Positions 2,351 through 59,324 of a DNA stretch of 64,000 nt are shown piece after piece. The translations under genes were made by a program, and so were the position numbers. The notes beneath the pieces were generated by a model. It worked only from the letters and a program-made list of their open reading frames with translations. It ran no database searches and was not told the origin of the DNA. Source of the DNA: Pseudomonadales bacterium. GTDB lineage: Bacteria > Pseudomonadota > Gammaproteobacteria > Pseudomonadales > Azotimanducaceae. Position 1 is the first letter of the stretch. Every line of letters begins with the position of its first letter. Where the stretch lies: NCBI GenBank assembly GCA_965199815.1, contig CBDATE010000010.1, forward strand, positions 26,384-90,383, given 5' to 3'.

Positions 2351-3205
2351 CTGATCAAGTCCATCCGTGGACTTGATCAGATTCGCAAATCAGAAATGCG
2401 CTACAGCGGGCACTTCCATGTGCCCGCCCCTGCGGGCGGCTCCGCCGTGCATTTTTGCTGTCCTGCAAAAATGTCAGCGGGCACTTCCTTGTGCCCGCCC
2501 CTGCGGGCGGCTCCGCCGTGCATTTTTGCTGTCCTGCAAAAATGTCAGCGGGCACTTCCATGTGCCCGCCCCTGCGGGCGGCTCCGCCGTGCATTTTTGC
2601 TGTCCTGCAAAAATGTCAGCGGGCACTTCCTTGTGCCCGCCCCTGCGGGCGGCTCCGCCGTGCATTTTTGCTGTCCTGCAAAAATGTCAGCGGGCACTTC
2701 CATGTGCCCGCCCCTGCGGGCGGCTCCGCCGTGCATTTTTGCTGTCCTGCAAAAATGTCAGCGGGCACTTCCATGTGCCCGCCCCTGCGGGCGGCTCCGC
2801 CGTGCATTTTTGCTGTCCTGCAAAAATGTCAGCGGGCACTTCCATGTGCCCGCCCCTGCGGGCGGCTCCGCCGTGCATTTTTGCTGTCCTGCAAAAATGT
2901 CAGCGGGCACTTCCATGTGCCCGCCCCTGCGGGCGGCTCCGCCGTGCATTTTTGCTGTCCTGCAAAAATGTCAGCGGGCACTTCCATGTGCCCGCCCCTG
3001 CGGGCGGCTCCGCCGTGCATTTTTGCTGTCCTGCAAAAATGTCAGCGGGCACTTCCTTGTGCCCGCCCCTGCGGGCGGCTCCGCCGTGCATTTTTGCTGT
3101 CCTGCAAAAATGTGCTGATTTGCTCGCAGATTCAATGCCTTACGGCACTGAATCTGGCGGCACATCCATGTGCCGCACGGGAAACTCTGTTATTCAGAGT
3201 TTCCC
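2351..3205. repeat. Composite palindromic (REP-like) element carrying an internal tandem array
   Basis: The left arm is a 13-bp-stem hairpin, CTGATCAAGTCCA-tccg-TGGACTTGATCAG (2351-2380). The right arm is CGGCACAT-cc-ATGTGCCG followed by GGGAAACTCTG-ttatt-CAGAGTTTCCC (3179-3205). The two arms together match the ~85-bp solo element at 38612-38700 in reverse orientation, at about 85% identity by eye. A 9-bp inverted repeat, GCAAATCAG (2385-2393) / CTGATTTGC (3115-3123), brackets the array. Confidence 0.8.
2404..3113. repeat. Tandem array: 10 head-to-tail copies of a 71-bp unit
   Basis: Unit: cagcgggcacttccatgtgcccgcccctgcgggcggctccgccgtgcatttttgctgtcctgcaaaaatgt. Units start at 2404, 2475, 2546 and so on to 3043, an exact 71-bp period. 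The only variation I see is A/T at one loop position (ttccat vs ttcctt in units 2, 4 and 10). Each unit contains the hairpins GCGGGCAC-N6-GTGCCCGC, CCGCCC-ctgc-GGGCGG and CATTTTTGC-tgtcct-GCAAAAATG. Confidence 0.95.
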
Positions 3206-5894: not shown

Positions 5895-6105
5895 GTGCCT
5901 CGAAACGTTCAGCAATCGCAGACCGGGAGTACCCGCGACACATCCGCTCGCCCGTACCCTTCTGTAGCGCCTCGTCGCATCGCAGACAGCAGGCTGATGT
6001 TCAACGCAGCGTGTGAGATTACCCCGCTCGCACGTACAATACGCGCCTCGTATTCCTGAATTGACCGTGGCTCCCGATCGGGTGCCAGACCCCCAGCTAC
6101 ACACC

Positions 6106-7146
6106 ATGAGCAACTTCTTCGCATACGGACTCGGACTGGCACATCGGGATGAGGCGGGTACGCTTGATGTCTGGTTTGCCTTTCTCGGCTGTGCCGAGCG
6201 GCGCGCACCCGCCTTTGAAGCGCTCCTGCACCGGTACGCCACCACCGAAGTCACGCCCCTGTCGCAAGCGCTTGCCGGACAAATCCGGGCGACTCCGGAT
6301 GCTGAAACAGGGCACCTGTCAGACTTTCTCTCGGCGCTGCCCGCCGCCAACAAAACGGGCCAGGATCAGCTCCTGCCCGTCATCGTCTGCCTGCGCGAGG
6401 ATGCGCCCATCAAGACAGTCGAGGCAGCGTATCTCAAGCTGCACCTGCTCTCGGCGCGCCTCAAGCGGCCCAACAGCATGAATCTCGACGGTCTCTTCAG
6501 CACCCTGCCAACGCTCGCCTGGACCAACCTTGGCCCGGTACGCCCGCACCGCCTGCCAGCCCTCATCCTGCGCGAACGACTGCATGCCCGCACGTTGCAG
6601 GTGCGCTCACTGGACAAGTTCCCGGCCATGACCGACTATCTGGCACCCTCAGGTGTGCGTATCGGTGATGCCGCGCGCATACGTCTCGGTGCCTATCTCG
6701 GAGAAGGTGCCACCGTCATGCACGAGGGATTCGTCAATTTCAATGCCGGCGCACTGGGCCCCAACATGATCGAAGGCCGCATCAGTCAGGGCGTGGTGGT
6801 CGGTGCACACTCGGATCTTGGTGGCAGCGCCAGCACCATGGGCACCCTCGCGGGCGGCGGCACGGTACGCATCTCAATCGGTGCCCAGTGTCTGATCGGT
6901 GCCAACGCCGGCACCGGCATTTCGCTCGGCGACCGCTGCACGATTGAAGCCGGCCTGTATATCACCGCTGCAACACCCGTTCGCGTTCTCGACGCAAGTG
7001 GACATCCGGCAGGACAGGTGAAGGCGCGCGAGCTCTCCGGGCAGAGCGACCTGCTGTTCCTGCGCAACGGAGCTACCGGCAGCGTCGAGTGTCGCAGCAA
7101 CCGAACCGCCATAGAGCTCAACAAAACCCTGCACAGACACAACTGA
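6106..7146 (+). CDS. dapD: 2,3,4,5-tetrahydropyridine-2,6-dicarboxylate N-succinyltransferase (long form)
   Basis: It shows hexapeptide-repeat LbH sequence (GVRIGDAARIRLGAYLGEGATVMHEGFVNFNAGALGPNMIEGRISQGVVVG...). Adjacency to dapE supports the call. The start is taken at MSNFFAYG rather than the upstream Met at 6013. Confidence 0.8.
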   Translation: MSNFFAYGLGLAHRDEAGTLDVWFAFLGCAERRAPAFEALLHRYATTEVTPLSQALAGQIRATPDAETGHLSDFLSALPAANKTGQDQLLPVIVCLREDAPIKTVEAAYLKLHLLSARLKRPNSMNLDGLFSTLPTLAWTNLGPVRPHRLPALILRERLHARTLQVRSLDKFPAMTDYLAPSGVRIGDAARIRLGAYLGEGATVMHEGFVNFNAGALGPNMIEGRISQGVVVGAHSDLGGSASTMGTLAGGGTVRISIGAQCLIGANAGTGISLGDRCTIEAGLYITAATPVRVLDASGHPAGQVKARELSGQSDLLFLRNGATGSVECRSNRTAIELNKTLHRHN

Positions 7147-7236
7147 CCACACAACTGACACGCGCAACGGCTCGAGCAGCCGCTGCCCGAACGGAGTACC
7201 CGAGGCAATGCACAGATTCACGTGCGAGGCACAAAC

Positions 7237-9159: not shown

Positions 9160-10107
9160 ATGCACTCTGCGCTCAGCATCAAGAACCATGTCAGCGCCGC
9201 CTGGCACAGCCCGGACAGGCTGATGAAACTGTCGCGACTGGCTGCCCGAACGATGAGCCTGACGCTCATCGTGCTGATCGCCTGGCTGATTGCCTCGACC
9301 CTGCTTGCATTGACCTTGCCGCGCGATTCGCTGCAAACGCCCGCAGACCCGCGTACACCGCAGACACCGGCACCTGATGCGGACACGCTTGCCGAAGCTG
9401 GCAATCTGTTTGGCATCTGGCAGGAGCGCACAGACGCTGTGCCGGTCGCACACGCCGAGGTGCCCACGGAAACCAGTCTGCCGCTCCGCCTCATCGGTGT
9501 GTATGTCAGCGCGTCTGCCGAGCGTTCCGCCGCGATTATTGCCAGAGGCAGTGAACAGGGTGTGCGTTATGTCGTCGGGGAGCGGATTCCGGGTAATGCT
9601 GTGCTGGCTTCGGTAAACGCGAACAGCGTGATGCTGACGCGAGCCGGGCGAACAGAGCGCCTGAGCTTCCCCGATATTGACGCAGACAACGCCATCAGGG
9701 CGCACGAATCCCGGGCAAGCGAGCCGCCACCCGATGTCGCACCGCCCATCGCGCGCACACAGCTCGGGAGCACACTGCCCGAGGTTTCCAGTCTGGGGGA
9801 GAAGATCGAAGAGTACCGGTCGCTCGCCACCCGTAATCCGGACGAAGCTCTGCAGCGGCTCGGGCTGCAACCGGTGAGCCAATCCGAAGCCAGTGGCTAT
9901 CGGGTGGCCGACCTGCCGGATAATCCATGGGTACGGCGCACCGGATTGCAGGATGGCGATCTGGTGCTCTCGGTGAATGGCCGTGCAATCGGTGACCCGC
10001 AGCTTGACCGATTGGAAATCGACAATCTGTTCGCGGAAGGTCGGGTACGGTTGGAGATTCAGCGCGGTGAGCGACGATTCTTTGTGGACACCACACTCGC
10101 CCGTTAG
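9160..10107 (+). CDS. gspC: Type II secretion system protein C (TM + HR region + C-terminal PDZ)
   Basis: It has an N-terminal TM helix (LTLIVLIAWLIASTLL) and a C-terminal PDZ-like segment (GYRVADLPDNPWVRRTGLQDGDLVLSVNGRAIGD). It lies immediately upstream of the secretin gene. Confidence 0.7.
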   Translation: MHSALSIKNHVSAAWHSPDRLMKLSRLAARTMSLTLIVLIAWLIASTLLALTLPRDSLQTPADPRTPQTPAPDADTLAEAGNLFGIWQERTDAVPVAHAEVPTETSLPLRLIGVYVSASAERSAAIIARGSEQGVRYVVGERIPGNAVLASVNANSVMLTRAGRTERLSFPDIDADNAIRAHESRASEPPPDVAPPIARTQLGSTLPEVSSLGEKIEEYRSLATRNPDEALQRLGLQPVSQSEASGYRVADLPDNPWVRRTGLQDGDLVLSVNGRAIGDPQLDRLEIDNLFAEGRVRLEIQRGERRFFVDTTLAR

Positions 10108-12375: not shown

Positions 12376-12431
12376 CACATGATTGGCACACGATTGGCAC
12401 ACGATTGGCACACGATTGGCACACGATTGGC
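12376..12431. repeat. Five phased copies of an 11-bp motif (CACAYGATTGG)
   Basis: GATTGGCACAC begins at 12381, 12392, 12403 and 12414, with a degenerate copy at 12425. The repeat lies in the 440-bp AT-richer spacer between convergent gspD and tusA. Confidence 0.9.
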
Positions 12432-44873: not shown

Positions 44874-47800
44874 TCAACCAACCCAAGTCCCGGCAAGCAC
44901 TTCAGCCTGCTGAAGCACAGTCCGCACGGCGGAGGCTTGCAGGTCGGGCGGATAGCCGTACTTGCGCAGGATGCGCTTGACCAGAACGCGCATTCCGGCG
45001 CGCGCCTGTTCACGATGTTGCCAATCCACGGAGGCATTGGCTTTCAGGCTGCTCAGCAACTCATGGGCGATGACGCGAAGTTGCGCGTTGCCCATCACAT
45101 CGACCGCGCTTTCGTTTTCGGCCAAGGCATCGTAGAAGGCGACCTCCTCGTCGCTCAACCCCTCTTCCGCACCGCGCTGGTGTGCGGCGCGGATGTCCCT
45201 GGCAAGCCTGATCAGTTCCTGAAGAACCTCCGCCGTGGTGATGGCGTTGCTGTGGTAGCGGGCGATGGCTTCCTCCAGCCTTTGGGAGAATGCGCGGGTC
45301 TGCACGACATTGATCTGGCTGCGCGAGCGAAGCCCGCCGTTGATGAGTTTGCGCAGTGCCTCCATTGCGAGATTCTTCATCTCCATTCCCTGAATCTCGG
45401 CGAGGAACTCGTCGGAAAGGATGGAGATGTCCGGCGCATTCACCCCGGCTGCTTCGAGAATATCGACAATCTCGGTCGAGACGATGGCGCGGCTGACGAT
45501 CTGCTGCACGGCGAGGTCGCGTTCGGCGGAGGACTTGCCGGTGCCGGGCGCACTCTTGGCAAGTGCTGCACGGAGCGTCTGGAAGAAACCCACTTCGTCC
45601 CGGACACAACGCGCCGCGTCGCTGGCGGCGGCGAGCGCGAAGGCTTTGGTGAGATCCAGCACGGCATCGTTGAATCGACACCGGACACGCTTCCTGTCTT
45701 CTTCGTTCGTTTCCCGCGCCGCATCGCATTGCTGCATCGTGAGAACCCATTCCATGGCGTTGGCCAGTGCGGCGAGCCGCTCCTGCGCCGACCCGACCAG
45801 ACCCTTTTGGTAATCAAACCCGTGGAACATGGCGCGCAGAATATCGAGTGTATCGAGCATCACTGCGACAGCTTCGGCTTCGTCGATGCCAGCGTGCTTC
45901 CGGTCGCCCTGTGAGTAACGACCGAGGGCCGTCTTCAGGTTCTGCGCGATGCCGATGTAGTCCACCACCAGCCCGGCCGGTTTGTCGCGGAACACGCGGT
46001 TGACGCGAGCGATGGCCTGCATGAGGCCGTGCCCCTTCATCGGCTTGTCAACATACATCGTATGCAGGCTCGGAGCGTCGAATCCGGTCAGCCACATGTC
46101 GCGCACGATCGCCAGCCCGAATGCGTCGTCCGGGTCCTTGATGCGTTTGGCGAGCAGCTCCCGCCGAGTCTTGCCCCCGATGTGAGCCTGCCATTGCTGC
46201 GGGTCTGATGCCGAACCGGTCATGACGATCTTGACGATGCCTTTCTCGTCGTCGTCGCTGTGCCAGTGCGGGCGCAGCCTGACGATCTCGCGATAGAGTG
46301 CGACGCAAATCCGGCGGCTCATGCAGACGACCATGGCCTTGCCGTCCATGCCGACGACGCGGCTCTCGAAATGCTTGACCAGATCCCGAGCGACGAGTCG
46401 GAGGCGCTTCTCCGCGCCGACGACCGCCTCGACATTCGCCCATCTGCGCCTGAGCTGCTCCTGCTCGCCTTCGTCCGCATCTTCCGTCAATTCGGCTATC
46501 TCGTCGTCAATCCCGGGTTTCTCATCTTCATCAAGTTCGACGCGCGCGAGACGGCTCTCATAGTAGATCGGTACCGTTGCGCCGTCCTCGACACCGCGGT
46601 TGATGTCATAAACATCTATGTACTCGCCGAATACAGCGGGCGTATTCACATCTTCCTGTTCGATCGGCGTACCCGTAAAGCCGATGAAGGATGCGTTCGG
46701 CAAGGCATCGCGCAGATATTTGGCAAAGCCGTAGGATATTTCGCCGCTCCTGTGCGCCACCCTGGCGCGGAATCCGTACTGGCTGCGATGCGCTTCGTCG
46801 GCAATGACGATGACATTGCGGCGCTCGGTAAGCATCGGGTAATCGACTTTTCCATGCTCGGGCGAGAACTTTTGAATGGTGGTGAACACCACTCCGCCGA
46901 CTGGTCGGGAGAGGATTTGCTTCAGGTTTTCGCGGTTATCTGCCTGCTGTGGGGTCTGGCGTAGCAGATCGCGGCACATGGAGAAGGTGCCGAATAACTG
47001 ATCATCAAGATCGTTGCGGTCGGTGACCACCACCAGTGTCGGGTTTTCCATGGCAGGATGGGCGATGACCTGTCCGGCATAGAAGGCCATCAGCAAACTC
47101 TTGCCGGAGCCTTGGGTGTGCCAGATGACACCGATGCGCTTGTCGCCCTGTTGCTGCGATTCGATGACGGGCAGTCCGTACTTCGCCGGTTCATCGCGCA
47201 GCTCGTGGGCGAATCTCGGCAGTGCGCTCAAGGTGGATGCGACGGCGCGGCGCACGGCATGGAACTGGTGATATCCGGCGATGATCTTGACAAGCCCTGC
47301 CCCGCTATCCGCGAACACGGTGAAATCGCGAAGCAGACTCAGGAACCGTCCCTTGTCGAAAACGCCCTTGATGAGGGTTTCCATCTCGGGTGTTCCCTTT
47401 GGGTCGATAGTGGTGCCGTGCACGGTGCGCCAGGGCATGAATCGTTCGCGATTGGCCGTGAGTGAACCGAGACGCGCCTGAATCCCGTCCGAGGTCATGA
47501 GTACCGCGTTAAAGCGGAACAGCGAGGATATATCTCTCTTGTAGGTCTGAAGCTGATTGAACGCGCCTTCAAGGGTGGCGTTTTCGTCTCCGGGGTTTTT
47601 CAGTTCGATGACCGCCAGTGGCAGGCCATTGACGAACAGCACCACATCGGGTCGGCGGTTGCGATGTGCTTCAATCACCGTGAACTGATTCACGGCAAGC
47701 CAGTCGTTGGCACAGATGTCCTCGAAGTCGATCAGTTGCGCCGAATCCCCGCCGATGCTGCCGTCCTCGCGGGCGATCTCGATGGGCACACCCTCGATCA

Positions 47801-48098
47801 GGTAGCGGTGCAGACGGCGGTTTTCCTCGATAAGCGAAGGGGTTTCCGTTTGTCGCAGCTTGCGCAGGACTTCGTCCCGTGTGTCAGTGGGCAGATGCGG
47901 GTTGAGTCGTTCAAGCGCCGCGCGAAGCCGACCGATCAGCAGCACTTCATCGTAGCTGACGCGCTCCGCCACCGGGCTTTCGGGAGCAATGTCCGCGCCG
48001 TCCGTCACGGTATATCCGAGTTCTTCCAGCCACCCGAGCGCGGCGTTCTCGACCTCTCCCTCGGTGATGAGCATCATGAAACCATCCGCAGAGGACAA
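44874..48098 (-). CDS. hsdR: Type I restriction enzyme, R subunit
   Basis: The N-terminus is [18 protein letters not shown]. The motifs are [15 protein letters not shown] (motif I) and [14 protein letters not shown] (DEAH). It is 1074 aa long. Confidence 0.9.
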
Positions 48099-48195: not shown

Positions 48196-49068
48196 TCACC
48201 TCGGAGATGGTCGAGTTGCGCGATCGCGGAACGAACGCGCCACCTCGCGCAGAATGGGCGCATCTGCCTTGCCGAAGCGAACAGGCGCACCTGAAATGTT
48301 TGATGGTCTTGTGCAAGCCCACAAAACTTCTATATCAAGAGATGTAAAAGGTTCGATGATCTGCACCAAGGCCTCGCACAGGTTTGCGCTTACCCCTTCG
48401 GCTACAGCTTCTCCAAACGCGACTCCATCGCCGGTGGCGACACTTTCGCTCGCCTCTCGCGCCGCTGCCAGCGCGCCAATCAGACGTCTCGTCAAACGCC
48501 GTGCGATGGGTGCCTGCCTGTCGTCGGAATCTGGCAATAGCGTCGATATTGCCGGTGCGATCTCGGGGGTCAGCAAAGTCACCGCGAAACTGCCCTGATC
48601 TGTCTGGCCAAGACGCATCCGCTTCATCAGATCGGTCGCCTCCCGATTCGCGCCCACACGATAGACATTCCGCGGTTCGCCCAGCGAACACGCCGTTGCA
48701 AGCAGTAGGTCGCGGGCACCCGAGACGAGCCTGACACCATCTTCGATCCCGATACTCCCGTCGTCGCCTGCGGCAGCGCGTATACGTATGATGTCGCGGT
48801 CGGCAGTCGCCAAGTGCCGGTACACCGCAAGCTCATCCTGATTGATGACCTGTGCGAAAGTCTTGACGAGCGCCCCCACAGCACTGGCGTAATCGCCGAG
48901 TTTTGTCGTGCGCGGAATGATGATATCCGGCAAGTTGTCGCCAACATAGACGGACGAGTGGGTGCGATAGGGTTCTCCCTGATGCCACCCTCTGGCGTGT
49001 GCGTAGGCAGCCAGCGCAGCAGGTGATATTGCGCGAAGGGCATCCGCGTCTCTTATGCTGACCTGCAT
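48196..49068 (-). CDS. Hypothetical protein (Type I R-M cargo)
   Basis: The start is taken at the ATG at 49068..49066 (MQVSIRDADALR), which overlaps the upstream stop. I recognised no motif. Confidence 0.45.
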   Translation of the reverse strand: MQVSIRDADALRAISPAALAAYAHARGWHQGEPYRTHSSVYVGDNLPDIIIPRTTKLGDYASAVGALVKTFAQVINQDELAVYRHLATADRDIIRIRAAAGDDGSIGIEDGVRLVSGARDLLLATACSLGEPRNVYRVGANREATDLMKRMRLGQTDQGSFAVTLLTPEIAPAISTLLPDSDDRQAPIARRLTRRLIGALAAAREASESVATGDGVAFGEAVAEGVSANLCEALVQIIEPFTSLDIEVLWACTRPSNISGAPVRFGKADAPILREVARSFRDRATRPSPR

Positions 49069-49880
49069 CAGGCGACCAGCCGAGGCTGCCATTCGTGACG
49101 GGCAGACCATGGAATGGGTACCACATTGTAGTTACGCATGGCGTTCATAACGTTATCGGAAACCCCTTGCTCCGAATCGTTCAGCACTGCACAGGCTTCT
49201 GCCTCGGCAGATCGTGTTTCCTTGATGTCCATCCATGAGAATGCCATGGTCTGCGCCGCTTCTCGATTCGGACGATTGATGGCGTGAAGAAAGCGCTCCG
49301 GTTGAGTTCTCGATTTCGGAATCACGAAATCGAAGCGATGGTCGTAGCCGCTCTTGCCCGTGAACTTGACGCTTGGCGTATAGCGGATTTCTGATAGATC
49401 CAGCCATGCGATTACATGTTCGTGAAACAAATTCGCGACATTTGAGGAAGCCAGATAGAAGAGGTCGTTGATTGCGAGCATGGCCTGCACAAGATTGTGC
49501 TTCCGCAAGGCGAAATTGTCCGCAGACGCATTGACCTCGAGCGCTTTTCCATTTGATTGCACACCGAAACCGTTCAGTGTTGTTCTGAACAGGGATTCGC
49601 GCTTTGGACTGTTGATCTTGCACCCGGACATCTCGAGGTCATCAAGAACATAGCCATCATCCGTCAACACATAACCGCCGTTCACGCGCTTGGCGTAAAT
49701 CCGGAGATAGTCGTTATGCCGGTCGAGGTAAGGCGTGGTGACTTCCACGCAGTCCGCAAGTTTTCGCAGATGCGTTCTGTCACGAAGCCAATGTGAGTAC
49801 TGATCGAGCAGCATCTGAATGTCTTCAATCATGCAAACACCCTGTACCGGATCAAATAGTGCCTGATATATCTGGGCCAA
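49068..49880 (-). CDS. DUF1828/DUF1829-type protein
   Basis: YSHWLRDRT...VEVTTPYLDRHNDYLRIYAKRVNGGYVLTDDGYVLDDLEMSGCKINSPKRESLFRTTLNGFGV...NFALRKHNLVQAMLAINDLF matches my recollection of the DUF1828 pattern. Confidence 0.6.
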   Translation of the reverse strand: MAQIYQALFDPVQGVCMIEDIQMLLDQYSHWLRDRTHLRKLADCVEVTTPYLDRHNDYLRIYAKRVNGGYVLTDDGYVLDDLEMSGCKINSPKRESLFRTTLNGFGVQSNGKALEVNASADNFALRKHNLVQAMLAINDLFYLASSNVANLFHEHVIAWLDLSEIRYTPSVKFTGKSGYDHRFDFVIPKSRTQPERFLHAINRPNREAAQTMAFSWMDIKETRSAEAEACAVLNDSEQGVSDNVMNAMRNYNVVPIPWSARHEWQPRLVA

Positions 49881-49892
49881 TACTGACTCGCC

Positions 49893-52067
49893 TCAATCCT
49901 CGAACGGTCGGTATTCAAGCAGGGATGAACGACCCATGATGTCAACGATGGTGACCGACAACTCGGTGCCATACGCGTCGGTGAGTCTCATGGGCTTGCC
50001 TACGCGAAAAGTCACCGGCTGTTGCCGCCCTTGCTCGACCGCAATGTTGTTCGCGTAGATATAGGTTCGGTTAGAGGTGTCAAGAATGGGATTCAAGCGT
50101 CCCCGCAGGCCGGGGAGATTCCCCGTGCCTTGATCGAAAATGGCGGCACCGCCAGGCTCAAACGGCTCAAGTTCGAGCAGCAGGCCACCCTGGCTGGGTG
50201 TCCACGCTCGTTGCAGTCCAGCTCTGTACCCGGAGCCGGCGGCATAGACGGTCATTGGCAAGTGTGTCGTGTAGAGATCAAGCGCCGCCTCGCCAGCATT
50301 GTCGGTCACAGAGCGCACCCAAGTCTTGTTGGGGAAGAGCGCGAGAATCTCGATACCTGCGAGAGGTTCCCCCGCGGAATGCACCGTGACCGTCGCGTCG
50401 GCGGGAACGAGTTCCAGTCTCGCAGCCGGGATGTGCAGCAGCAAGCTTGATTCATCAATCATTTTGTATTCTGGCGGTGCGCCGGCAATCTCTCGAGTCT
50501 TCCTGCGAATGAGCGACACGCCGTCTCCGCGGCGTTCCATCAGGTATTTGCGAGCACCCGAGCCCGGCACATTGGCGACGGGTATGCGACCAAACACGGA
50601 AGCGATGGCCTCGTTGCGAGTCACCTGACTGGCCTCCATACCTTCGATGGTCATACCATTGGGAAGCTGGCCGGGCGACTCGATTTCCAGGCGGTCCTTG
50701 AACATGGAGATTCGAATCCTGCGCTCGGACATGGAGTAGTCGCGGTGCGCGACCGCGTTGACCACCGCCTCGAATACGGCGGTTTTGCTGTATTGCGGGA
50801 TGTCCTCTCGTTCCGGGGTTTTGCGCGCGGCAACGCGCATATTGCGAACGACGAACTTGACCGCGTCGGCAACCTGATCAGGAAGCGGCCCGACGATTTC
50901 CTGCGCGTCCAGCTGACCGGAGGCGCGGTCCTTCCCGCGATAGTGTGTCGCCACGATAGTTGCTTGCGGCAACCACTGCTGCGGGGAAGGGGCGCAGAGC
51001 AGTACGCCAGCCACGGTCGCGTACACCGATTCAGCATCATCAAGCGCCAGCAACCTGAGATTTCGAAGGGCTCGTTGCGGATCCGCCGCGCCCTCCACAC
51101 TGATGAGCGGCTCCCACAGGCGTTCGCCAAGTGTTTCGAATCCGGTCTCGGGCACGACCTGCTTGTCGAACCAGAGGTAGCGGTTTTGTGCGCGATTCTG
51201 CGCCAGCCGCAGGCGCTCGGCGCTCTGAAGGCGGCGCTTGGTTGCGCCAACCCGCATGAAGGCTTGTCCGCGCCGTTCATGTATCGCTTCGCCGCGCGGC
51301 ACAACCACCATCACGAATGCCTTGCCATCGAGTTCCCGGTGATAAATGTCGATGCGCAGCGGTGGCTCAAGCTTGTTGGTGCTGACTTCCGCCAGCAGGA
51401 TTTATCGAGCTCTGGCCATCCGTTTTGGCGACATGCCCTGAATCGTTCCGTCGTCGGCCACCCCGCACAGCATAATTCCACCGTCCGCATTGGCGAACGC
51501 GCCGAGTTCATCCGCGAAACTGTCTCTGCTCGGGCTCGTCGGCTTATCGCCTTTGAATTCGATCTGTTTGAATTCCCAGTGGCTATCCTTGCCCAAGCGA
51601 AGTTGTCGGCGGATTTCTTCGTCCTTTATCGAAAACCAGTCACCGACTTCATCTGCGACGGTCTCGACCGTGTGGCTGCGTGAAGTAAACCACAGGTCGG
51701 AAACGCGCAGAGCCGCCTGAGCGACCAGAGTGACCGCTTCCCCCAATGCATTGATTTTTTCGATTTGAAGCGTGAGTTCCCCACGGTTGAGACTTACCCC
51801 CAGTGTTTGGCACACATCCGCAATCAGGCGTTCCTGTTTCGATGACCTCTGCGGGCTTGTCGTTTGCAGGCCAAGCCATCCCAAGGTCTCGCCAAAGTCC
51901 GTAACGCTGTAGTGCGTCCCGCAGTCAATTACATGAACCTCGATGAGCCCGCCATCTGGATACATCAAAGGTGTCCTCACCCGGATGTCCCCGCGGGGTG
52001 CCTTCGCGCACTCGAATAGCGAAGGAAGCGAAGCTTCTATTGTCGCGTACAAGTGGTCAGTACTCAT
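49893..52067 (-). pseudogene. DUF1828-like + AlbA_2 (Schlafen-type) + HATPase_c_4 protein, interrupted by one in-frame TAA at 51402-51404
   Basis: The track ORFs 51402..52067 and 49893..51314 share one frame: (52067-51314) is divisible by 3, and the 87 nt between them is open (ILLAEVSTNKLEPPLRIDIYHRELDGKAFV). The AlbA_2 motif is WEFKQIEF...LGAFANADGGIMLCGVADDGTIQG. The HATPase_c_4-like region is FEAVVNAVAHRDYS...ISMFKDRLEIESPGQLPNG. Confidence 0.7.
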
Positions 52068-52122
52068 GACGGCAGTTCATCCTGAATAGCCGGATGGCTC
52101 TTTTTTCCAACGTGAGAAACCT

Positions 52123-53179
52123 TCATGTCCTGATGGATATCCCGCTGGATTTCGCTCTCTTTTTGTTGCTCTTGTTTTTCGCCTGATGCGCGGACCAAAT
52201 ATCGTCAATAGATTCAGCTTCCAATGTGAGCCTGACCTTCTCAATAGCCTTGCATGAGTATCTTTTGTAAGTCGAGGCACCGATCTTGAACTCCTTATAG
52301 CATTCACCGTCCTTTCGAAGGCTTATGTGATTAGCGATCGCACCCAACCTGGGTACTGTCAGACCAAGTTTTTTGGCAAGATCGGTTGCACCTAAACTGT
52401 AATGATCGAGTTCATTGACTCTTCGTATTCCAACAACAGCTTCGGTTCTTTCGTCCTCCTGTAACAGACTCACGGGGGTTCCTTCGTTCTTTGTTAGCCG
52501 CAGATTCAGAGTCGACCCCTCGCCTCCTGTCGCGATATTGATGGATGCAACTCCGGGAAAGATATCCCTGCCATGCTTTTCCTTCTGCGATGCGATCACA
52601 GATCTTTCTTAATTCTGAGTCACCGGGCTGTTCGTCGTCACCTGCTACAGCACCCTCCAACACGGAGAGGCTTCTTGCCTTTGCAATTGCATCCATTTTC
52701 CTTCTGGTTCCCTCGACCAAGAGTTGCTGTATTTCTGCGACTTCTGTCTCGAACAATGTCGATAAATCCTTGGGCGCGGTTGTGGAGACGGGGAGGACGC
52801 GTTCGGGCAGTTCGAGCAAAAGGCTGCTCTCGAATATATCGTCATGAACGTCACGAAAGAGCGTCACACCCGCCTGAGCATGGAAATAAAGCAGATGCTC
52901 GGATATATCGACAATGTAATGTTGAGCTGCGTTTCGCTGCCCGTTAATCACTTGCAGAGCGAGCGCCTGCTCATCGGTTAGAAACTTGATTTTCCCATCG
53001 GTAAGGCATTTTCTCACGCAATCACTATAGCTAATAGTCTGCTTTTGGCGCGGCTTACGAATCTTTCCCTGCCTTTGCAGGATCGCTGATTTGAGAAGCA
53101 TTTCGAAGGAGTGGTGGAGCAAGATCAGCACGGCCTCTGTTCTGCCATCCGACGGTCGATTGAACTCGATTGATAGCAA
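52123..53179 (-). pseudogene. Hypothetical (DUF3644-like N-terminus?) gene, probably frameshifted near 52575-52585
   Basis: Two ORFs (52412..53179 and 52123..52599) overlap by 188 nt in different frames. The first turns Arg-rich and implausible after ...RKICDRIAEGK. The second looks protein-like from ...KHGRDIFPGVASINIATGGEG. One base fewer at the GGAAAAGC run would join them. GC is about 45%. Confidence 0.5.
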
Positions 53180-53185
53180 GCGCGT

Positions 53186-53584
53186 TTATGCCTTTCGCGA
53201 GTCGGCGAACTTCCTTTTTCCGTCACGGCCTGTGGACTCTTTCAGCGTCCGGACACGGATTTCGCCGGATATGAGTTTGGGGAGGAGGATATCTCGGGTT
53301 TGAGACAGCGTTCTCGCTTCACGACGGTTTGAGAGTAGTTGATCAAGGGAATCGATCTTCGAACAGTTCGAGCAGCAATGGGTCTTCAAGCACCTTGCGA
53401 GTTGCAGGGCTTTCGGCGGAACGCGCTGATGACTCTTTGATGTCCCGGTGACCATGGCAATCATCTTCCTCCTGAAGCCTTCGCATGAAGAGGAGTACGA
53501 ATACTGCGGGTCGCAGGCGAGATAGGTGGCAAGAATTCGGTAGATGCTACCTGTGGCACTTCCCCTTTCGCGTTCGGCAGCCAA
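53186..53584 (-). pseudogene. hsdS: HsdS C-terminal remnant
   Basis: The end of the ORF (VPPKALQLA...IDSLDQLLSNRREARTLSQTRDILLPKLISGEIRV) matches the second conserved helical region and C-terminal LLPKLISGExRV tail of Type I S subunits. It shares a frame with 53726..54727 but is separated from it by several stops. Confidence 0.6.
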
Positions 53585-53725
53585 CTCTTTCGATTTCCGG
53601 ATTCAGTTTGGAGAGGAGAACTGCGTTCTCTGGCACCATCATCGAGTCGCGATATCAAGTGATGCTCGTTTGCAGCATCAAAGGATGGGATGCTGTAGTG
53701 CTCGGACGCCCCGGATCAATCGAGA

Positions 53726-54727
53726 TTATTGCAAGTGATGATGTGCGAGATCGTTCAGGGTAAATGCTGTCCACCCCTCCGGCTTTCCCTCGTCGTCGAG
53801 GGTGTCGGGGAACAGGTTCCACAGTTCGGGCGGGAGGTAGGGGCTGCGGCCTTCCATCTTGGCGCGGGTGGGGCCGAAATCGACGAACCAGTCCTTGAAG
53901 ATGGCCCGCGCCATTGCTTCAAGCGTCGCGTTCATGCGCCGGTTCAACTCGATCTTGTCGTCCAGTGTGCCGAGGATGTGGGCAATGGCGCGCTGTTCGC
54001 TGATAGTAGGCAGCTTTACAGGCATCTCCGTAAATGACCGAAGTCTGAGTGACTTTACGGTTGATCCCACGGCTACCCGCTCCCAATATCTCCTGTTATC
54101 AAGTAGGAGGTAGTAGAGGAATCGTGTGCTAACGGCAAGTTCGTCAGTTGAAGTGACTCGATAGGCCCGCTGATGTAGATCGAACTTTCCGCTGAAGTAT
54201 TCAGGCACGAACTCCCGACCCTCGCCTGGGACAATAACTGCTTGACAATCAAAGAGATACTTCGAGCTTCGCTTCACGGTTGAAGATCTGTCAAAGAGGG
54301 GAAACTCACCGTCATCGACTGCGTCTTGCCGATTGCTCTTGCCCGTCCCAATCATGGCAACTTGACCGAGATTGGTTCGTCTCCATCTAGAAAGGGGAAC
54401 ATTCGGTCGGTGAACAACCACATACTCCCGCTCGATCACCTTCCGAAAGCCGTTGGACGCTCTCCCCCAATCGACAACATCGACTTTGAAGGGGAGGTCG
54501 GATTCGCCAAACGCTTCGGCCAGCGCCGAGCTTGCGCTCAGTGGAAGCGGCTCATCGCCCAGAATTGCGAGATCGAGGTCGGAGTATTCCTTCGCCGTCC
54601 AGGTGACACGGGATCCGAAGGCCCATACCGCTCGGTCCGGCACATGTTGCCGCAAGATATCGCGCACTATGTCCCAATAATCAGGCCGAAGGTCGATTCG
54701 CGGCATCGGTTCGCTCATGTCAGACAT
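53726..54727 (-). CDS. MNT-type nucleotidyltransferase (antitoxin-like) fused in frame to HsdS TRD1 + central conserved region; truncated at the start of TRD2
   Basis: Residues 1-~108 are AVWAFGSRVTWTAKEYSDLDLAILG...DLPFKVDVVDW (GSx10DxD NTase). From ~110 the sequence is HsdS-like (WRRTNLGQVAMIGTGKS...LPTISEQRAIAHILGTLDDKIELNRRMNATLEAMARAIFKDWFVDF...PEGWTAFTLNDLA), followed by a stop. Confidence 0.7.
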   Translation of the reverse strand: MSDMSEPMPRIDLRPDYWDIVRDILRQHVPDRAVWAFGSRVTWTAKEYSDLDLAILGDEPLPLSASSALAEAFGESDLPFKVDVVDWGRASNGFRKVIEREYVVVHRPNVPLSRWRRTNLGQVAMIGTGKSNRQDAVDDGEFPLFDRSSTVKRSSKYLFDCQAVIVPGEGREFVPEYFSGKFDLHQRAYRVTSTDELAVSTRFLYYLLLDNRRYWERVAVGSTVKSLRLRSFTEMPVKLPTISEQRAIAHILGTLDDKIELNRRMNATLEAMARAIFKDWFVDFGPTRAKMEGRSPYLPPELWNLFPDTLDDEGKPEGWTAFTLNDLAHHHLQ

Positions 54728-55131
54728 TCACGCAGCCTGTCTCTCAAGTAAGCCACCTCTCTGATGAAGTGCGGAATGACACTGACCACTTCCAGTGCGA
54801 CATCCTCGTCGTAGGTATGGCTGGTTTTCCTACGTATTTCACGAAAGCCACGCCAATCCGGCCAGTCTCCGAGCAGCAATCCTCGTTCGTTTCCGGTGCG
54901 GATCAGATCCTGAAATGTCATCTCATCGAACTGCTCCGGGTTGGCGGAAGCATATTCAAGATAGCGTTTCAGAATCTTGTGGCCGAGCTCATACGTGAAC
55001 TCGAAACGCTGGACCAGACCATCGCGAATCCGGATGTCGCTCGTATCGGCCAGGTATCGCGCCAAACCTTCTTCAAGGCGTTGAATCGCCCGTTCGAAGG
55101 GGGCAGTCTTGAGTGTATTGTCGAAGGACAT
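54715..55131 (-). CDS. hepT: HepT/HI0074-family HEPN protein (nucleotidyltransferase substrate-binding protein)
   Basis: 138-aa ORF with RFEFTYELGHKILKRYL and the HEPN Rx4H motif in EIRRKTSHTYDE. It overlaps the downstream MNT start by 13 nt. Confidence 0.75.
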   Translation of the reverse strand: MSFDNTLKTAPFERAIQRLEEGLARYLADTSDIRIRDGLVQRFEFTYELGHKILKRYLEYASANPEQFDEMTFQDLIRTGNERGLLLGDWPDWRGFREIRRKTSHTYDEDVALEVVSVIPHFIREVAYLRDRLRECLT

Positions 55132-55183
55132 GTCGTTATTCGCTTGAGCAACCTGATTTGCGGAGCCGGTTGTAGCTCACCTG

Positions 55184-55249
55184 TGACCTACAAACGGTTT
55201 TGTGGTTCGTTTTATCGCAAAAATGACCCACAAACTCCTTTGTAGGTCA
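55184..55249. promoter_or_regulatory. Nested inverted repeats between fic and hepT (candidate operator or RNA stem-loop)
   Basis: The outer pair is 11 bp, TGACCTACAAA (55184-55194) / TTTGTAGGTCA (55239-55249). The inner pair is 7 bp, TTTGTGG (55199-55205) / CCACAAA (55228-55234). This gives four CCYACAAA-type half-sites within 66 bp. Confidence 0.45.
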
Positions 55250-55259
55250 TCTATGAGCA

Positions 55260-56378
55260 TCAAAATACCTTTCTCCCTTCAGCAGCGTTCAACAAATCCG
55301 GGAATACCAGCACCGCTGCTCGACTCCCTTTCCCCTCGACCAGTGTTTTGACGATACTCGCGTCGCGCAGAACATGCAGTATCCGTTTTGCCGAGGATTG
55401 AGGAATACTTGATTGTTTCGCGAAATCGGTACTGCAGAAGATCGGGCACTCGAATATCCAGTCCAGCGCGTAGATGGCGTATTGCGAATGGGTCAGTTGC
55501 ACGACACGATCCTTCAAATTGTCGTAAAGCCTGCGAATCTCCCGCGCCTTGGCCAGATTGTCTTCCGCCTGCCGCGTCACGGCTTCAAGAAAGAATTGGC
55601 ACCAGCCCGTCCAGTCGTCATCGCGGGACACCCGCAGTAGCCCCTCATAGTAGGCAGATCGGTTGGTCTCCAGCCAGGCGCTGATGTAGAACACCGGTCG
55701 GGCAATCAGCCCGCGCCGCCAGAGAAAAAGCGGCACGAGCAAGCGACCGAGACGCCCGTTGCCGTCCAGAAACGGGTGCAGCGCTTCGAACTCGGCATGC
55801 AGCACTGCCAGTTGAATCAGCGGGTCGGGCACCTCGTCATTGTTGATATAGCGCTCCCAGCGAGCCATGGCATCAGGCAATCGATCCGCCGAGATGGGGA
55901 CATAGGATGCGGTGTGTATGTCGCTGCCGGGCGGGCTAATCCAGTTACGGATGCGACGCAATTCGCCCGGGTCCTTGTTTGCGCCGCGCACTCCGGACAT
56001 GAGCACACGATGCGCCTCCTTGATCACGCGCAGGCACAGGGGTAATTCCTCGAGCATCTGTTCCGAGACCCGGAGTGCTTCACGGTAATTGATGATCTCC
56101 ACGATGTCGGCTTGGCGCTCGGCGGACGCGGGCGTTTGCCCCGCCTCGTATTCCAGCACTTCGCCCAGAGTGGCTTGGGTGCCCTCGATGCGCGAGGAAA
56201 GTACCGCTTCCCGCATCAGCAAGGGAGCCACCAGAATGCGTGGATTCGGCACCGTGGCAAGCGTACCGTCGTACCGCGCCAAGGCCGCGCTTGCCTGACC
56301 GATCAGCGGTGCCAGCAAGCGCCAGTCGAGGCGCTCTTCCGGCGGAAATGCCTCTTGCTGATACTGTGCAGCGCTCAT
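55260..56378 (-). CDS. Fic/DOC-family protein
   Basis: It has the Fic motif [14 protein letters not shown], and its C-terminus is winged-helix-like. Its start overlaps the hsdM stop (ATGA at 56375-56378). Confidence 0.85.
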
Positions 56379-58024
56379 GAGCTCTCCCGAAAGCCGAGAC
56401 GCTCCAGATTTTCGGCGATGGCAGCGTCCAGCAGCGCACCTTCGGCCTGCTGCTCGCGCAGTTCGGCCACGAGACGCTGCATCCTGTCGGCAAAGGGTTC
56501 GCCATCATCCTCTGCGGGCGGGGCACCAACATAGCGCCCTGGAGTCAGCACATGACCGTGCATGCGCACCTCCTCGAGCGACACGCTCTTGCAGAATCCC
56601 GGCTCGTCCTCGTAGGTTGGCGCATCCGTCGCGCCACGCCAGGCGTGATACACATCGGCGACCCGGGCGATGTCTTCTTCGGAGAATTCCCTTCGGGTTC
56701 GATCAACCATGTGTCCGAGCCTGCGAGCGTCGATGAACAGCACCTTGCCACGCCGGTCGCAGCAGCTTCCGCCAATTTGGGGGGGGGGGGGGGGGGGGGG
56801 GGGATTCTTGTTGCGCGCCAGAAACCAGAGGCAGGCCGGAATCTGCGTCGAGTAGAAGAGCTGTTCGGGCAGTGCGATCATGCAATCCACGATATCGGCC
56901 TCGATCATGGCGCGGCGGATATTGCCCTCGCCGGATGTTGTCGTGGACATGGAGCCGTTGGCGAGCACCACGCCCGCCGTCCCATTCCGCCCAAGATGAT
57001 GGTAGATGTGTTGCAGCCAGGCGTAGTTGGCGTTGCCCTTCGGCGGTACACCGAATGCCCAGCGGGCATCCTCGCGCAATCGCTCGCCTCCCCAATCCTT
57101 CACGTTGAACGGCGGGTTGGCGAGAATGAAGTCGAACTTCAGGTCAGGCAGTTCGTCCTTGTGAAAGCTGCCTTCGTTGTTCCAGCGAATATCTGCGTCG
57201 ATACCGCGCACCGCAAGGTTCATCCTGGCGAGTCGCCAGGTTGTGTTATTGCTTTCCTGCCCATAGATGGCTATGTCGCCAATACGCCCACCATGTTCCT
57301 CGACGAACTTCCTGGATTGCACGAACATGCCGCCGGAACCGCAGCAGGGGTCATAGACACGGCCCTTGAAGGGTTGCAGCATTGCAACCAGCAATCGGAC
57401 GACGGACGCGGGTGTGTAAAATTCCCCGCCACCCTTGCCTTCAACACCGGCAAAGGCACCGAGGAAGTACTCGTATACGCGCCCGAGGATGTCGCGTGAG
57501 CGGTGTATATCACTCGTCATGCCGATTCCGCTCACCAGATCGATAAGCTCGCCGAGCATGATCGTGTTCAGTGCCGGTCGGGCGTATTCCTTGGGCAGCA
57601 CACCCCTGAGCGAAGCGTTATCCGTTTCAAGTGCCTGCATGGCATCGTCGATGTCCTTGCCGATCGTTGGCCGCCTGGCATGCTCCTGCATACGCGACCA
57701 GCGGGCGGCCTTCGGCACCCAGAAGACGCTGTCGGCAAGGTACTCTTCCGGGTCTTCGGCATCGGCCAGAGGATCTTCAAGCAGCTCTGCCCGTTTGGTC
57801 TCGAAGACATCGGAGATGTACTTGAGAAAGATCAGCCCCAAAGCCACATGCTTGTAGTCCGACGGCTCCATGTTGCCACGCATCTTGTCCGCCGCGGCCC
57901 AGAGCTGCGCCTCGAACCCGAGGTTGGCATCGCTGGTGCCCCTGCCGCCACTCGCGCCAGTGTCCTTGCCTGACTTCGCCTGTCTTGCCATGTGCTCCTT
58001 CGCAGGGCCTGTCTGCCGAGTCAC
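56375..58024 (-). CDS. hsdM: Type I R-M DNA methyltransferase, M subunit, containing a poly-Pro insert encoded by a homopolymer tract
   Basis: The N-terminus is [36 protein letters not shown]. Motif I is [12 protein letters not shown] and motif IV is ILANPPFN. The tail reads [24 protein letters not shown]...[14 protein letters not shown]. Confidence 0.9.
56779..56803. repeat. 25-nt homopolymer (G on + strand, C on the hsdM coding strand)
   Basis: Counted from the sequence: gg (56779-56780) + 20 g (56781-56800) + ggg (56801-56803). It currently reads in frame as 8 x CCC plus the C of CAA. Confidence 0.95.
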
Positions 58025-58101
58025 CTTATACTATGTGTGCACTATGAAATAGACCCTTCCTCGTACAACTGCACACAACTCCACACAACTGCGATACTCC
58101 C

Positions 58102-59247
58102 GTGCCGAATCCCATCTATCTCGACTATGCATCCACGACACCCGTAGATCCGCGGGTGGCGGACAAGATGGCGGCATGCCTCGGCCGTGAAGGCAACTTC
58201 GGCAACCCGGCCTCGCGCACGCACAGCCTTGGCTGGCAGGCCAGTGAAATCGTCGAGGAGGCGCGTTCCGATCTTGCCACGCTGATTGGTGCCGACCCGC
58301 GCGACATCATCTGGACATCCGGTGCCACCGAATCCGACAATCTGGCCATCAAGGGCGTGGTGGAAGCTTCGCAAGCGCCCGCAGGCCACATCGTTACCAG
58401 CCGCATCGAGCACAAGGCGGTCGTGGACACCTGCAAGCACCTCGAATCGCTCGGACACAGGGTCACCTGGCTCGCGCCCGACCACGACGGCCTGATTACC
58501 CCCGCCATGGTCGAGCAGGCGATGGCCGACGACACCTTGCTGGTGTCCATCATGTACGCCAACAACGAAATCGGCACGGTCAACGACATCCCCGGCATCG
58601 CGCAGCTGTGCCGCGCCCGTCAGGTACCGCTGCATGTCGATGCGGCGCAAATGGTCGGCAAGCTGCCGATTGACCTCGGCAGCGTCCCCATCGATCTGAT
58701 GAGCATATCCGGCCACAAGTTCTACGCCCCCAAGGGGATAGGCGCGCTCTATGTGCGCCGCGGCGCGGTGCGCCTGAGCGCGCAGATTCACGGTGGCGGC
58801 CATGAATTTGGCATGCGCTCGGGCACATTGGCCACGCATCAGATACTCGGCATCGGCGAGGCGGCGCGCATTGCACACTCCGAGGTATCGCAAGAAGCCT
58901 GGCATCTCACCCACTTGCGCGAGGTCTTTCTCGAACGCATGGCGGCGCTCGAAGGCGCGCACCTCAATGGCAGCAGGACGCACCGGCTGCCGGGTCTGGT
59001 CAACCTGTCCTTTGAAGGCGTGGACGGCGAAACCCTGATCAACGCCCTGCCGGGTATCGCCGTCTCCAATGGCTCGGCATGCACCTCGGCGAGCGTCGAG
59101 CCTTCCTATGTGCTCTCCGAACTCGGCTTGCCGCGCAATCTGGCGTTCGGGTCGGTGAGATTCAGCTTCGGGCGCTTTACCCGCGAGGAAGATCTCGTCA
59201 TGGCGGCCGAGGAAGTAATACGCGTGGTGAGAGCACTGCGCGCATGA
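58102..59247 (+). CDS. Cysteine desulfurase (IscS/NifS family, short C-terminus)
   Basis: The start is a GTG. The sequence is [16 protein letters not shown]...[12 protein letters not shown]...[13 protein letters not shown]...[17 protein letters not shown] (PLP Lys)...[10 protein letters not shown] (active-site Cys). It is 381 aa long. Confidence 0.85.
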
Positions 59248-59324
59248 GCCCAGCTTGCGGGTATCGGGCGCTACAGAATTTCGTGCGCCGTTTTGCGAAG
59301 CGCAACGCCTCGCGAAGCGCAAAA

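Follow-up and report, generated by a model that had tools for sequence, protein, structure and literature searches.

In the 64,000-nt stretch of contig CBDATE010000010.1 analyzed here (assembly GCA_965199815.1, a Pseudomonadales bacterium of the Azotimanducaceae; the whole stretch is called the window below), the gene for the modification subunit of a Type I restriction-modification (R-M) system, hsdM, contains an unbroken run of 25 cytosines. With modest confidence, we read this tract as a real, recent and intrinsically hypermutable homopolymer that would mechanically toggle hsdM within an operon already undergoing erosion. The features at the center of this reading are:

56375..58024, minus strand: hsdM, Type I N6-adenine methyltransferase subunit (Pfam, homologues, ratio of nonsynonymous to synonymous substitution rates (dN/dS), ATGA junction)
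56779..56803, minus strand: homopolymer C25/G25, encoding P408-P415 of HsdM (run count)
56774..56800, minus strand: 27-nt in-frame insertion, on the coding strand C22 + AAATT, encoding PPPPPPPQI (protein, codon and 3KHK alignments)

Sequence count and translation both agree with the original prediction that 25 consecutive G on the plus strand encode PPPPPPPP at residues 408-415 of HsdM. Positions 56779-56803 hold exactly 25 G on that strand, i.e., C25 on the coding (minus) strand, which begins at nucleotide 1222 of the coding sequence (residue 408) and is read in frame; in-frame tract lengths at this site are 3n+1 (22, 25, 28 and so on). The run lies 74% into the open reading frame (ORF), downstream of FILANPPFN and upstream of the RDRRGxVLFIDAR segment, and its placement after the NPPF motif and before a conserved segment had likewise been described correctly. 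The second-longest homopolymers in the window, which has a G+C content of 60%, are a single A7 and a few runs of six. If bases were drawn independently according to base composition, about 6e-9 runs of G25 or C25 would be expected in 64 kb, and extrapolation of the observed decay in G/C run lengths lowers this expectation to about 8e-14.

The gene that holds the run is 549 aa long when read from a GTG at 58024, with a likely ATG start 11 codons later at 57991 that gives a protein of 538 aa (P0001). It contains the HsdM_N (PF12161, Pfam E = 3e-26) and N6_Mtase (PF02384, E = 4e-105) domains, retains both the S-adenosylmethionine-binding motif of the DPxxGSGG type and the catalytic FILANPPFN intact, and aligns to the solved Methanosarcina HsdM structure (PDB 3KHK) with E = 1.8e-133. 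By its domain content and homology, the gene at 56375-58024 is thus a genuine Type I hsdM.

A search of 5.8 billion proteins returned thousands of HsdM relatives, the best non-self match being 82% identical, and the top 119 full-length homologues were aligned for comparison. All 119 read CLWFLxRNKNP-GGxxRDRRGxVLFIDAR at the site of the tract, where the protein from the window has nine extra residues (PPPPPPPQI); the same nine-residue gap recurs in the alignment to 3KHK. The nearest homologous locus, an ENA metagenome contig (L001) that served as reference for codon alignment and dN/dS, reads AAC CCC GGC GGG, vs AAT CCC [CCC x7 CAA ATT] GGC GGA in the window. The tract thus belongs to a 27-nt insertion that none of the homologues has, a point that the original prediction did not contain. 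The boundaries of the insertion within the C-run are arbitrary and the ancestral sequence is AAY-CCC|GGC-GGN; by these alignments the tract is part of an in-frame, lineage-specific insertion beside an ancestral CCC codon. A simple scenario would be that a short P-Q-I insertion created a C7 run, which then expanded by 18 nt. A pattern allowing a gap of 1-31 nt, written for a Q-I-G-G intermediate of this kind, had no match in the metagenome scan described below.

The insertion is predicted to sit in a surface loop, a coil between the CLWFL strand, the last beta-strand of the catalytic domain, and the strand formed by RDRRGxVLFIDAR. Its structural setting was taken from the alignment to 3KHK and from an AlphaFold model built on a shallow alignment, whose mean predicted local distance difference test score of 46 is poor and which was used for the strand-coil-strand context alone. 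P0099 bears a different, unrelated 11-aa insertion at the tract site, and in more distant HsdM fragments the spacer from WF[LI] to LFID measures anywhere between about 10 and 24 residues; the loop therefore appears to be naturally variable in length. These properties would also suit a stable, functional polyproline loop that merely happens to be encoded by a homopolymer without appreciable instability, as the insertion is in frame and its site tolerates insertions. We consider this explanation highly improbable. All eight prolines are encoded by CCC, whereas selection for a stable linker would be expected to give mixed codons, a homopolymer this long is unstable by nature (PMC7383803), and coding genes in general have fewer poly(C)/poly(G) runs than expected (PMC2831843).

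Sequence on either side of the insertion is ordinary hsdM. Aligned to L001 without gaps, the 153 nt upstream are 90% identical and the 150 nt downstream 80%, and a chimeric join at the tract was rejected, both flanks being part of one collinear hsdM. Relative to L001, dN/dS is 0.12 upstream of the tract and 0.11 downstream, and because of the latter value the part of hsdM 3' of the tract does not appear degenerate. Pseudogenization of hsdM was considered as well; it is unsupported by dN/dS and weakly hinted at by eight substitutions at columns that are near-invariant among the 119 homologues (in P0001 numbering L37M, A62V, N88S, R187G, R195A, E227R, S298K and P335R), of which R195A changes the R of EFYTPR. 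These substitutions could mean relaxed constraint on HsdM.

Changes in tract length have predictable consequences for the protein. Computed products are 492 and 493 aa for tracts shortened by one or lengthened by two (24 and 27 nt), and 440 and 439 aa for tracts lengthened by one or shortened by two (26 and 23 nt). Every out-of-frame length loses 134 native C-terminal residues, including the conserved segment and the C-terminal helical region, in accordance with the loss of about 135 aa that had been anticipated for a slip of one nucleotide. At its present length the tract could be read through as eight prolines followed by Q-I, which would allow full-length HsdM to be made. Slippage during replication would constantly yield variants of 24 and 26 nt, with HsdM ending at residue 492 or 440. 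Type I systems build both their methylase (M2S1) and their endonuclease (R2M2S1) with HsdM. Since both complexes require it, OFF variants would lose modification and restriction together, and this joint loss would provide a non-lethal way of turning the system off. We infer that the tract would act as a mechanically reversible frameshift switch of hsdM.

How fast such a switch might operate can be approximated from characterized simple sequence repeats (SSRs). Mononucleotide tracts of at least 9 nt are the published criterion for potentially phase-variable hsd genes, and tracts of this class phase-vary at about 1e-3 (PMC7383803). C25 in hsdM is a mononucleotide run of at least 9 nt within an ORF, its unit length is not divisible by three, and its frameshifts truncate the product. 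Judging from established SSR behavior, a run of 25 nt would be far less stable than tracts of 9 nt and would undergo very frequent replication slippage. Effects may extend beyond hsdM itself: hsdM stops and the next gene starts within one overlapping ATGA (TCATGA at the junction), and premature termination of hsdM may lower expression of the translationally coupled SoFic gene and the genes downstream. Transcriptional slippage, which blurs ON and OFF states, would also be expected at a homopolymer that exceeds the length of the RNA:DNA hybrid, and translation of eight prolines in a row should depend on elongation factor P (EF-P). Leaky OFF states have been reported for an SSR in a mod gene (bioRxiv 10.64898/2026.04.01.715767).

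Whether the tract exists in the genome as assembled is central to this interpretation. An artefact, with the tract absent or much shorter in the true genome through two-colour poly-G, consensus or polishing error or low coverage, is unlikely in our judgment, if a prospect to be taken seriously. Poly-G is the signature of dark cycles in two-colour chemistry. The tract is known from this one sequence, no relative in databases or scans carries anything similar, the source is an uncultured gammaproteobacterium and the contig (142,399 bp) probably that of a metagenome-assembled genome, and a biological origin is not apparent for the AATTT adjoining the run. Against an artefact, dark cycles substitute bases or tail reads, whereas the window has a clean 27-nt insertion with collinear flanks on the same strand; moreover, this insertion is in frame and occupies the one indel-tolerant loop of the region. 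Random homopolymer miscalls in long reads would not be expected to survive consensus, and large ORFs intact across the window indicate a consensus of good quality. A 710-bp near-perfect tandem array is resolved in the window, which implies long reads: its ten copies include five consecutive identical 71-nt units (355 bp), and since de Bruijn assembly from short reads would probably have collapsed an array of this kind, long-read assembly is suggested. The metaMDBG-style names of related contigs also point to long-read assembly. The marks of a two-colour artefact, namely replaced or tailed sequence, non-collinear flanks and short-read assembly, were not found here, which is not conclusive. The caution about two-colour chemistry in the original prediction is therefore weakened by the collinear flanks, the insertion in place of a substitution and the resolved array, and retains the residual weight given above. 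Overall, the tract is most likely real DNA. If the assembly is long-read, the long run truly exists, with its exact length of 25 and its ON state uncertain, and the annotated ON state of this hsdM is not to be trusted without read-level support.

Repeats of other kinds occur elsewhere in the window. The tandem array (2404-3113, minus strand) consists of ten copies of a 71-nt unit with a single variable position among them, and hairpins flank it at about 2350-2385 and 3160-3180. Read on the minus strand, every unit forms the hairpins CAUUUUUGC-AGGACA-GCAAAAAUG, GGC-GGA-GCC and GGGCAC-AUGGAA-GUGCCC, with GGA in the loops; the whole array has about 30 GGA motifs and a fold z-score of -7.1. Comparison with Rfam gave weak, sub-threshold matches to RsmV of the Csr/Rsm clan (22 bits vs a gathering score of 100). 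The array looks like a very large putative CsrA/RsmA-sponge small RNA (CsrB/RsmZ-like) made of tandem repeats. At 12376-12431, an 11-nt unit (CACACGATTGG) is repeated in 5.1 copies at 97% identity; as the unit is not a multiple of three, this repeat is potentially slippage-prone.

The tract and its alleles were sought outside the window with two degenerate patterns, both of which match the window, in four scans of collections comprising 185,579 GTDB species genomes, 241 million JGI metagenome records and the IMG/VR viral contigs. Poly-P at the loop was found in 0 of the 119 full-length homologues and in 0 of 77 HsdM fragments, which are short and came from a peptide search around the loop. Comparison of the same position in relatives, which the original prediction had proposed as a check, thus yielded no tract in the homologues or in the three collections, and recurrence of the tract at the orthologous site was not observed. 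Its absence elsewhere is weak evidence only, because no allele closer than 82% exists. Looked up by exact sequence, two proteins of the window (P0001 and P0122) matched no record. The only close relative of the island (L002, a 2.97-Mb circular contig) does not cover the tract site: its SoFic gene is 95% identical, and directly upstream of it only the last ~235 nt of hsdM are left (9769-10004), the remainder being deleted. The 21 kb of L002 that were examined had no match to hsdS or hsdR.

The host is a poorly sampled environmental gammaproteobacterium: among GTDB species representatives, the nearest HisS proteins, from uncultured metagenome-assembled genomes of Gammaproteobacteria and Pseudomonadales, are only 44-54% identical. 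In 857 kb of comparison loci the longest homopolymers are 10 nt, and the one G/C case among them occurs in L002. There (6102-6118), a GT2/GtrA glycosyltransferase gene (6088-7218) starts with ATGAAACCTGATT-C7-T-C10, spanning codons 5-11. A C-run so near the 5' end is the classic arrangement of a contingency locus, as in phase-variable genes for surface modification, and its presence suggests that this lineage tolerates G/C runs.

In the window, hsdM heads a minus-strand series that continues with SoFic, a HEPN-type gene, an MNT::HsdS fusion, candidate defence genes and hsdR. Upstream of hsdM, across a 17-nt gap, lies a 426-aa ORF (58042-59322, minus strand) without a Pfam or PADLOC match. The remaining features of the series are:

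55260..56378, minus strand: Fic-domain gene (PADLOC SoFic, 6e-108; PADLOC model, ATGA overlap with hsdM)
54715..55131, minus strand: HEPN-type gene (NTase_sub_bind), putative partner of the MNT domain encoded downstream (domain match)
53726..54727, minus strand: truncated hsdS, an MNT::HsdS fusion of 333 aa with MNT, the first target recognition domain (TRD1) and the central conserved region only (domain and family comparison)
53186..53725, minus strand: decayed second half of hsdS, a TRD2 remnant (at least four in-frame stops and frame changes)
52412-53179, minus strand: PDC-S19/DUF3644, candidate defence gene
51402-52067 and 49068-49880, minus strand: PDC-M24B, two copies, candidate defence genes
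49893-51314, minus strand: SLFN/HATPase_c_4 protein, candidate defence gene
48196-49110, minus strand: PDC-M02B, candidate defence gene
44874..48098, minus strand: hsdR, intact ORF of 1074 aa (HSDR_N, SWI2_SNF2 and T1RH-like_C domain matches)

The defence-gene island thus occupies 48196-56378 (minus strand), nested between hsdM and hsdR. MNT::HsdS fusions are, to judge from at least 8000 candidate relatives, a large natural family, whose members among the matches listed are mostly 505-575 aa long; the version in L001 has two MNT domains and 610 aa. In the window, a complete Type I set would combine the intact hsdR with an hsdS of 333 aa in place of the normal 505-575 aa, and its TRD2 is broken. 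The decay of hsdS that had been noted earlier is borne out by this shortened product and by at least four stops in TRD2. As judged from these lesions TRD2 is dead, and the C-terminal conserved helix is still recognizable at about 53249-53329. Methylation activity is uncertain because the specificity subunit is without a functional second TRD. In principle, a half-size HsdS made up of TRD1 plus the central conserved region might still work as a dimer (PMC7383803). The deletion in L002 shows, at the level of gene content, that Type I genes erode in this island family while the nested genes persist.

These findings bear on whether the tract has been kept by selection as an evolved contingency locus that switches the Type I system ON and OFF, for instance in a trade-off between phage defence and DNA uptake or autoimmunity, or as a phasevarion acting via genome-wide methylation changes. 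A locus of this kind would fit the published SSR criterion (PMC7383803), the purifying selection downstream of the tract, the intact hsdM and hsdR, a half-size HsdS that might function as a dimer (PMC7383803), and the occurrence of the 5' C7TC10 tract in the glycosyltransferase gene of L002. We nevertheless regard it as rather unlikely. The tract is not conserved in relatives, and it lies 74% into the ORF, whereas SSRs in hsdM are usually 5' (PMC7383803). The dead TRD2 and the loss of hsdM in the related island indicate erosion rather than refinement, and with slippage at 25 nt during replication and probably transcription, the tract would make a poor binary switch (cf. bioRxiv 10.64898/2026.04.01.715767). 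Since the tract is unique, hsdS has lost TRD2 and L002 has deleted hsdM, a recent accident is better supported than a conserved, selected contingency locus. The proposal that hsdM is a phase-variable candidate therefore stands in part: the gene has the sequence properties of SSR-controlled genes, and the tract is a unique insertion that does not recur in relatives. To call this hsdM a phasevarion would be pure speculation.

Several observations also count against our preferred reading of a real, hypermutable tract that toggles hsdM. No flanking direct or inverted repeats and no mobile-element footprint were found around the insertion, so that no mechanism is suggested, and the origin of the extra AAATT beside the run is unexplained. 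The pattern W-F-L-x-R-(N/D)-K-(N/D)+C8 had no match in species genomes, metagenomes or IMG/VR, and the database of 5.8 billion proteins held neither an HsdM allele more than 82% identical nor a truncated OFF allele. The eight substitutions at near-invariant columns are the highest number among 120 HsdM sequences, the others reaching seven. Finally, a 25-nt G/C run exceeds the tracts usually maintained in characterized phase-variable genes.

A further possibility, to which we give little credence, is that the tract may behave as a multi-layer 'dimmer' of the whole defence operon and not as a binary switch, resulting in graded and noisy levels of HsdM. Replication slippage would set the frame of the DNA, while slippage of RNA polymerase would mix frames among the transcripts of every genotype. 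Translation of the eight prolines in the in-frame product would call for EF-P, and ATGA coupling together with polarity would grade expression of SoFic, the HEPN/MNT pair and the half-HsdS. We know of no description of such contingency behavior in an environmental gammaproteobacterium.

If real and variable, the tract would be a homopolymer switch of unusual length in the Type I methylase of a high-GC, uncultured gammaproteobacterium from the environment. R-M switching by SSRs, so far described mostly in host-adapted pathogens, would then extend to a free-living lineage, and the insertion would illustrate how a switch can originate de novo in an indel-tolerant loop. Such a locus would also offer a natural test case in which replication slippage, transcriptional slippage and polyproline stalling are combined. 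Should it prove to be an artefact, or a neutral scar left in an operon that is dying, it would be of no wider importance.

Long G runs as such are shared with the poly-G artefact of two-colour instruments (NextSeq/NovaSeq). That artefact tails reads or contig ends or replaces bases, unlike the 27-nt insertion in the window, which is flanked by collinear, in-frame sequence in an apparently long-read assembly. Among biological systems, the closest are other hsdM genes with SSRs. About 2% of the hsdM genes in REBASE carry qualifying SSR tracts, mostly in the 5' region and including those of environmental species (PMC7383803). Experimental support among them is limited to Haemophilus influenzae, where the tract is a CGAGA pentanucleotide repeat (Atack et al., FASEB J 2020, PMC7383803), and hsdM of Mannheimia haemolytica has an ACAGC[10-40] tract (PMC7383803). 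As in these genes, the repeat in the window lies within the ORF, its unit is not a multiple of three, and the frameshift is predicted to turn modification and restriction ON and OFF. In contrast to H. influenzae and M. haemolytica, the tract is mononucleotide, 25 nt long and located in the 3' third of a gene whose partner hsdS is truncated. It also differs from the known examples in having arisen as a loop insertion and in its environmental host of about 60% GC.

Poly-G tracts are found in hsdS of Neisseria gonorrhoeae (NgoAV), Salmonella serovar India (G[12]) and M. haemolytica (G[n]) (PMC7383803). Common to these systems and the window are a G/C homopolymer in a Type I R-M gene and truncated half-HsdS products as part of the biology. 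Their tracts lie between the two TRDs and switch specificity, whereas the tract in hsdM would act ON/OFF only, and the truncation of hsdS in the window is due to multiple stops, unlike the tract-based truncation in those systems. Another parallel is offered by Bordetella, in which tracts of about 10-16 nt, mostly in promoters or surface-protein genes, are polymorphic between strains. G/C homopolymers vary in this high-GC proteobacterium, where a G10 tract has been genotyped (Gogol et al. 2007, PMC1891110). The window shares with Bordetella the occurrence of a G/C homopolymer in a high-GC proteobacterium, while polymorphism and rapid variability are features of the Bordetella tracts.

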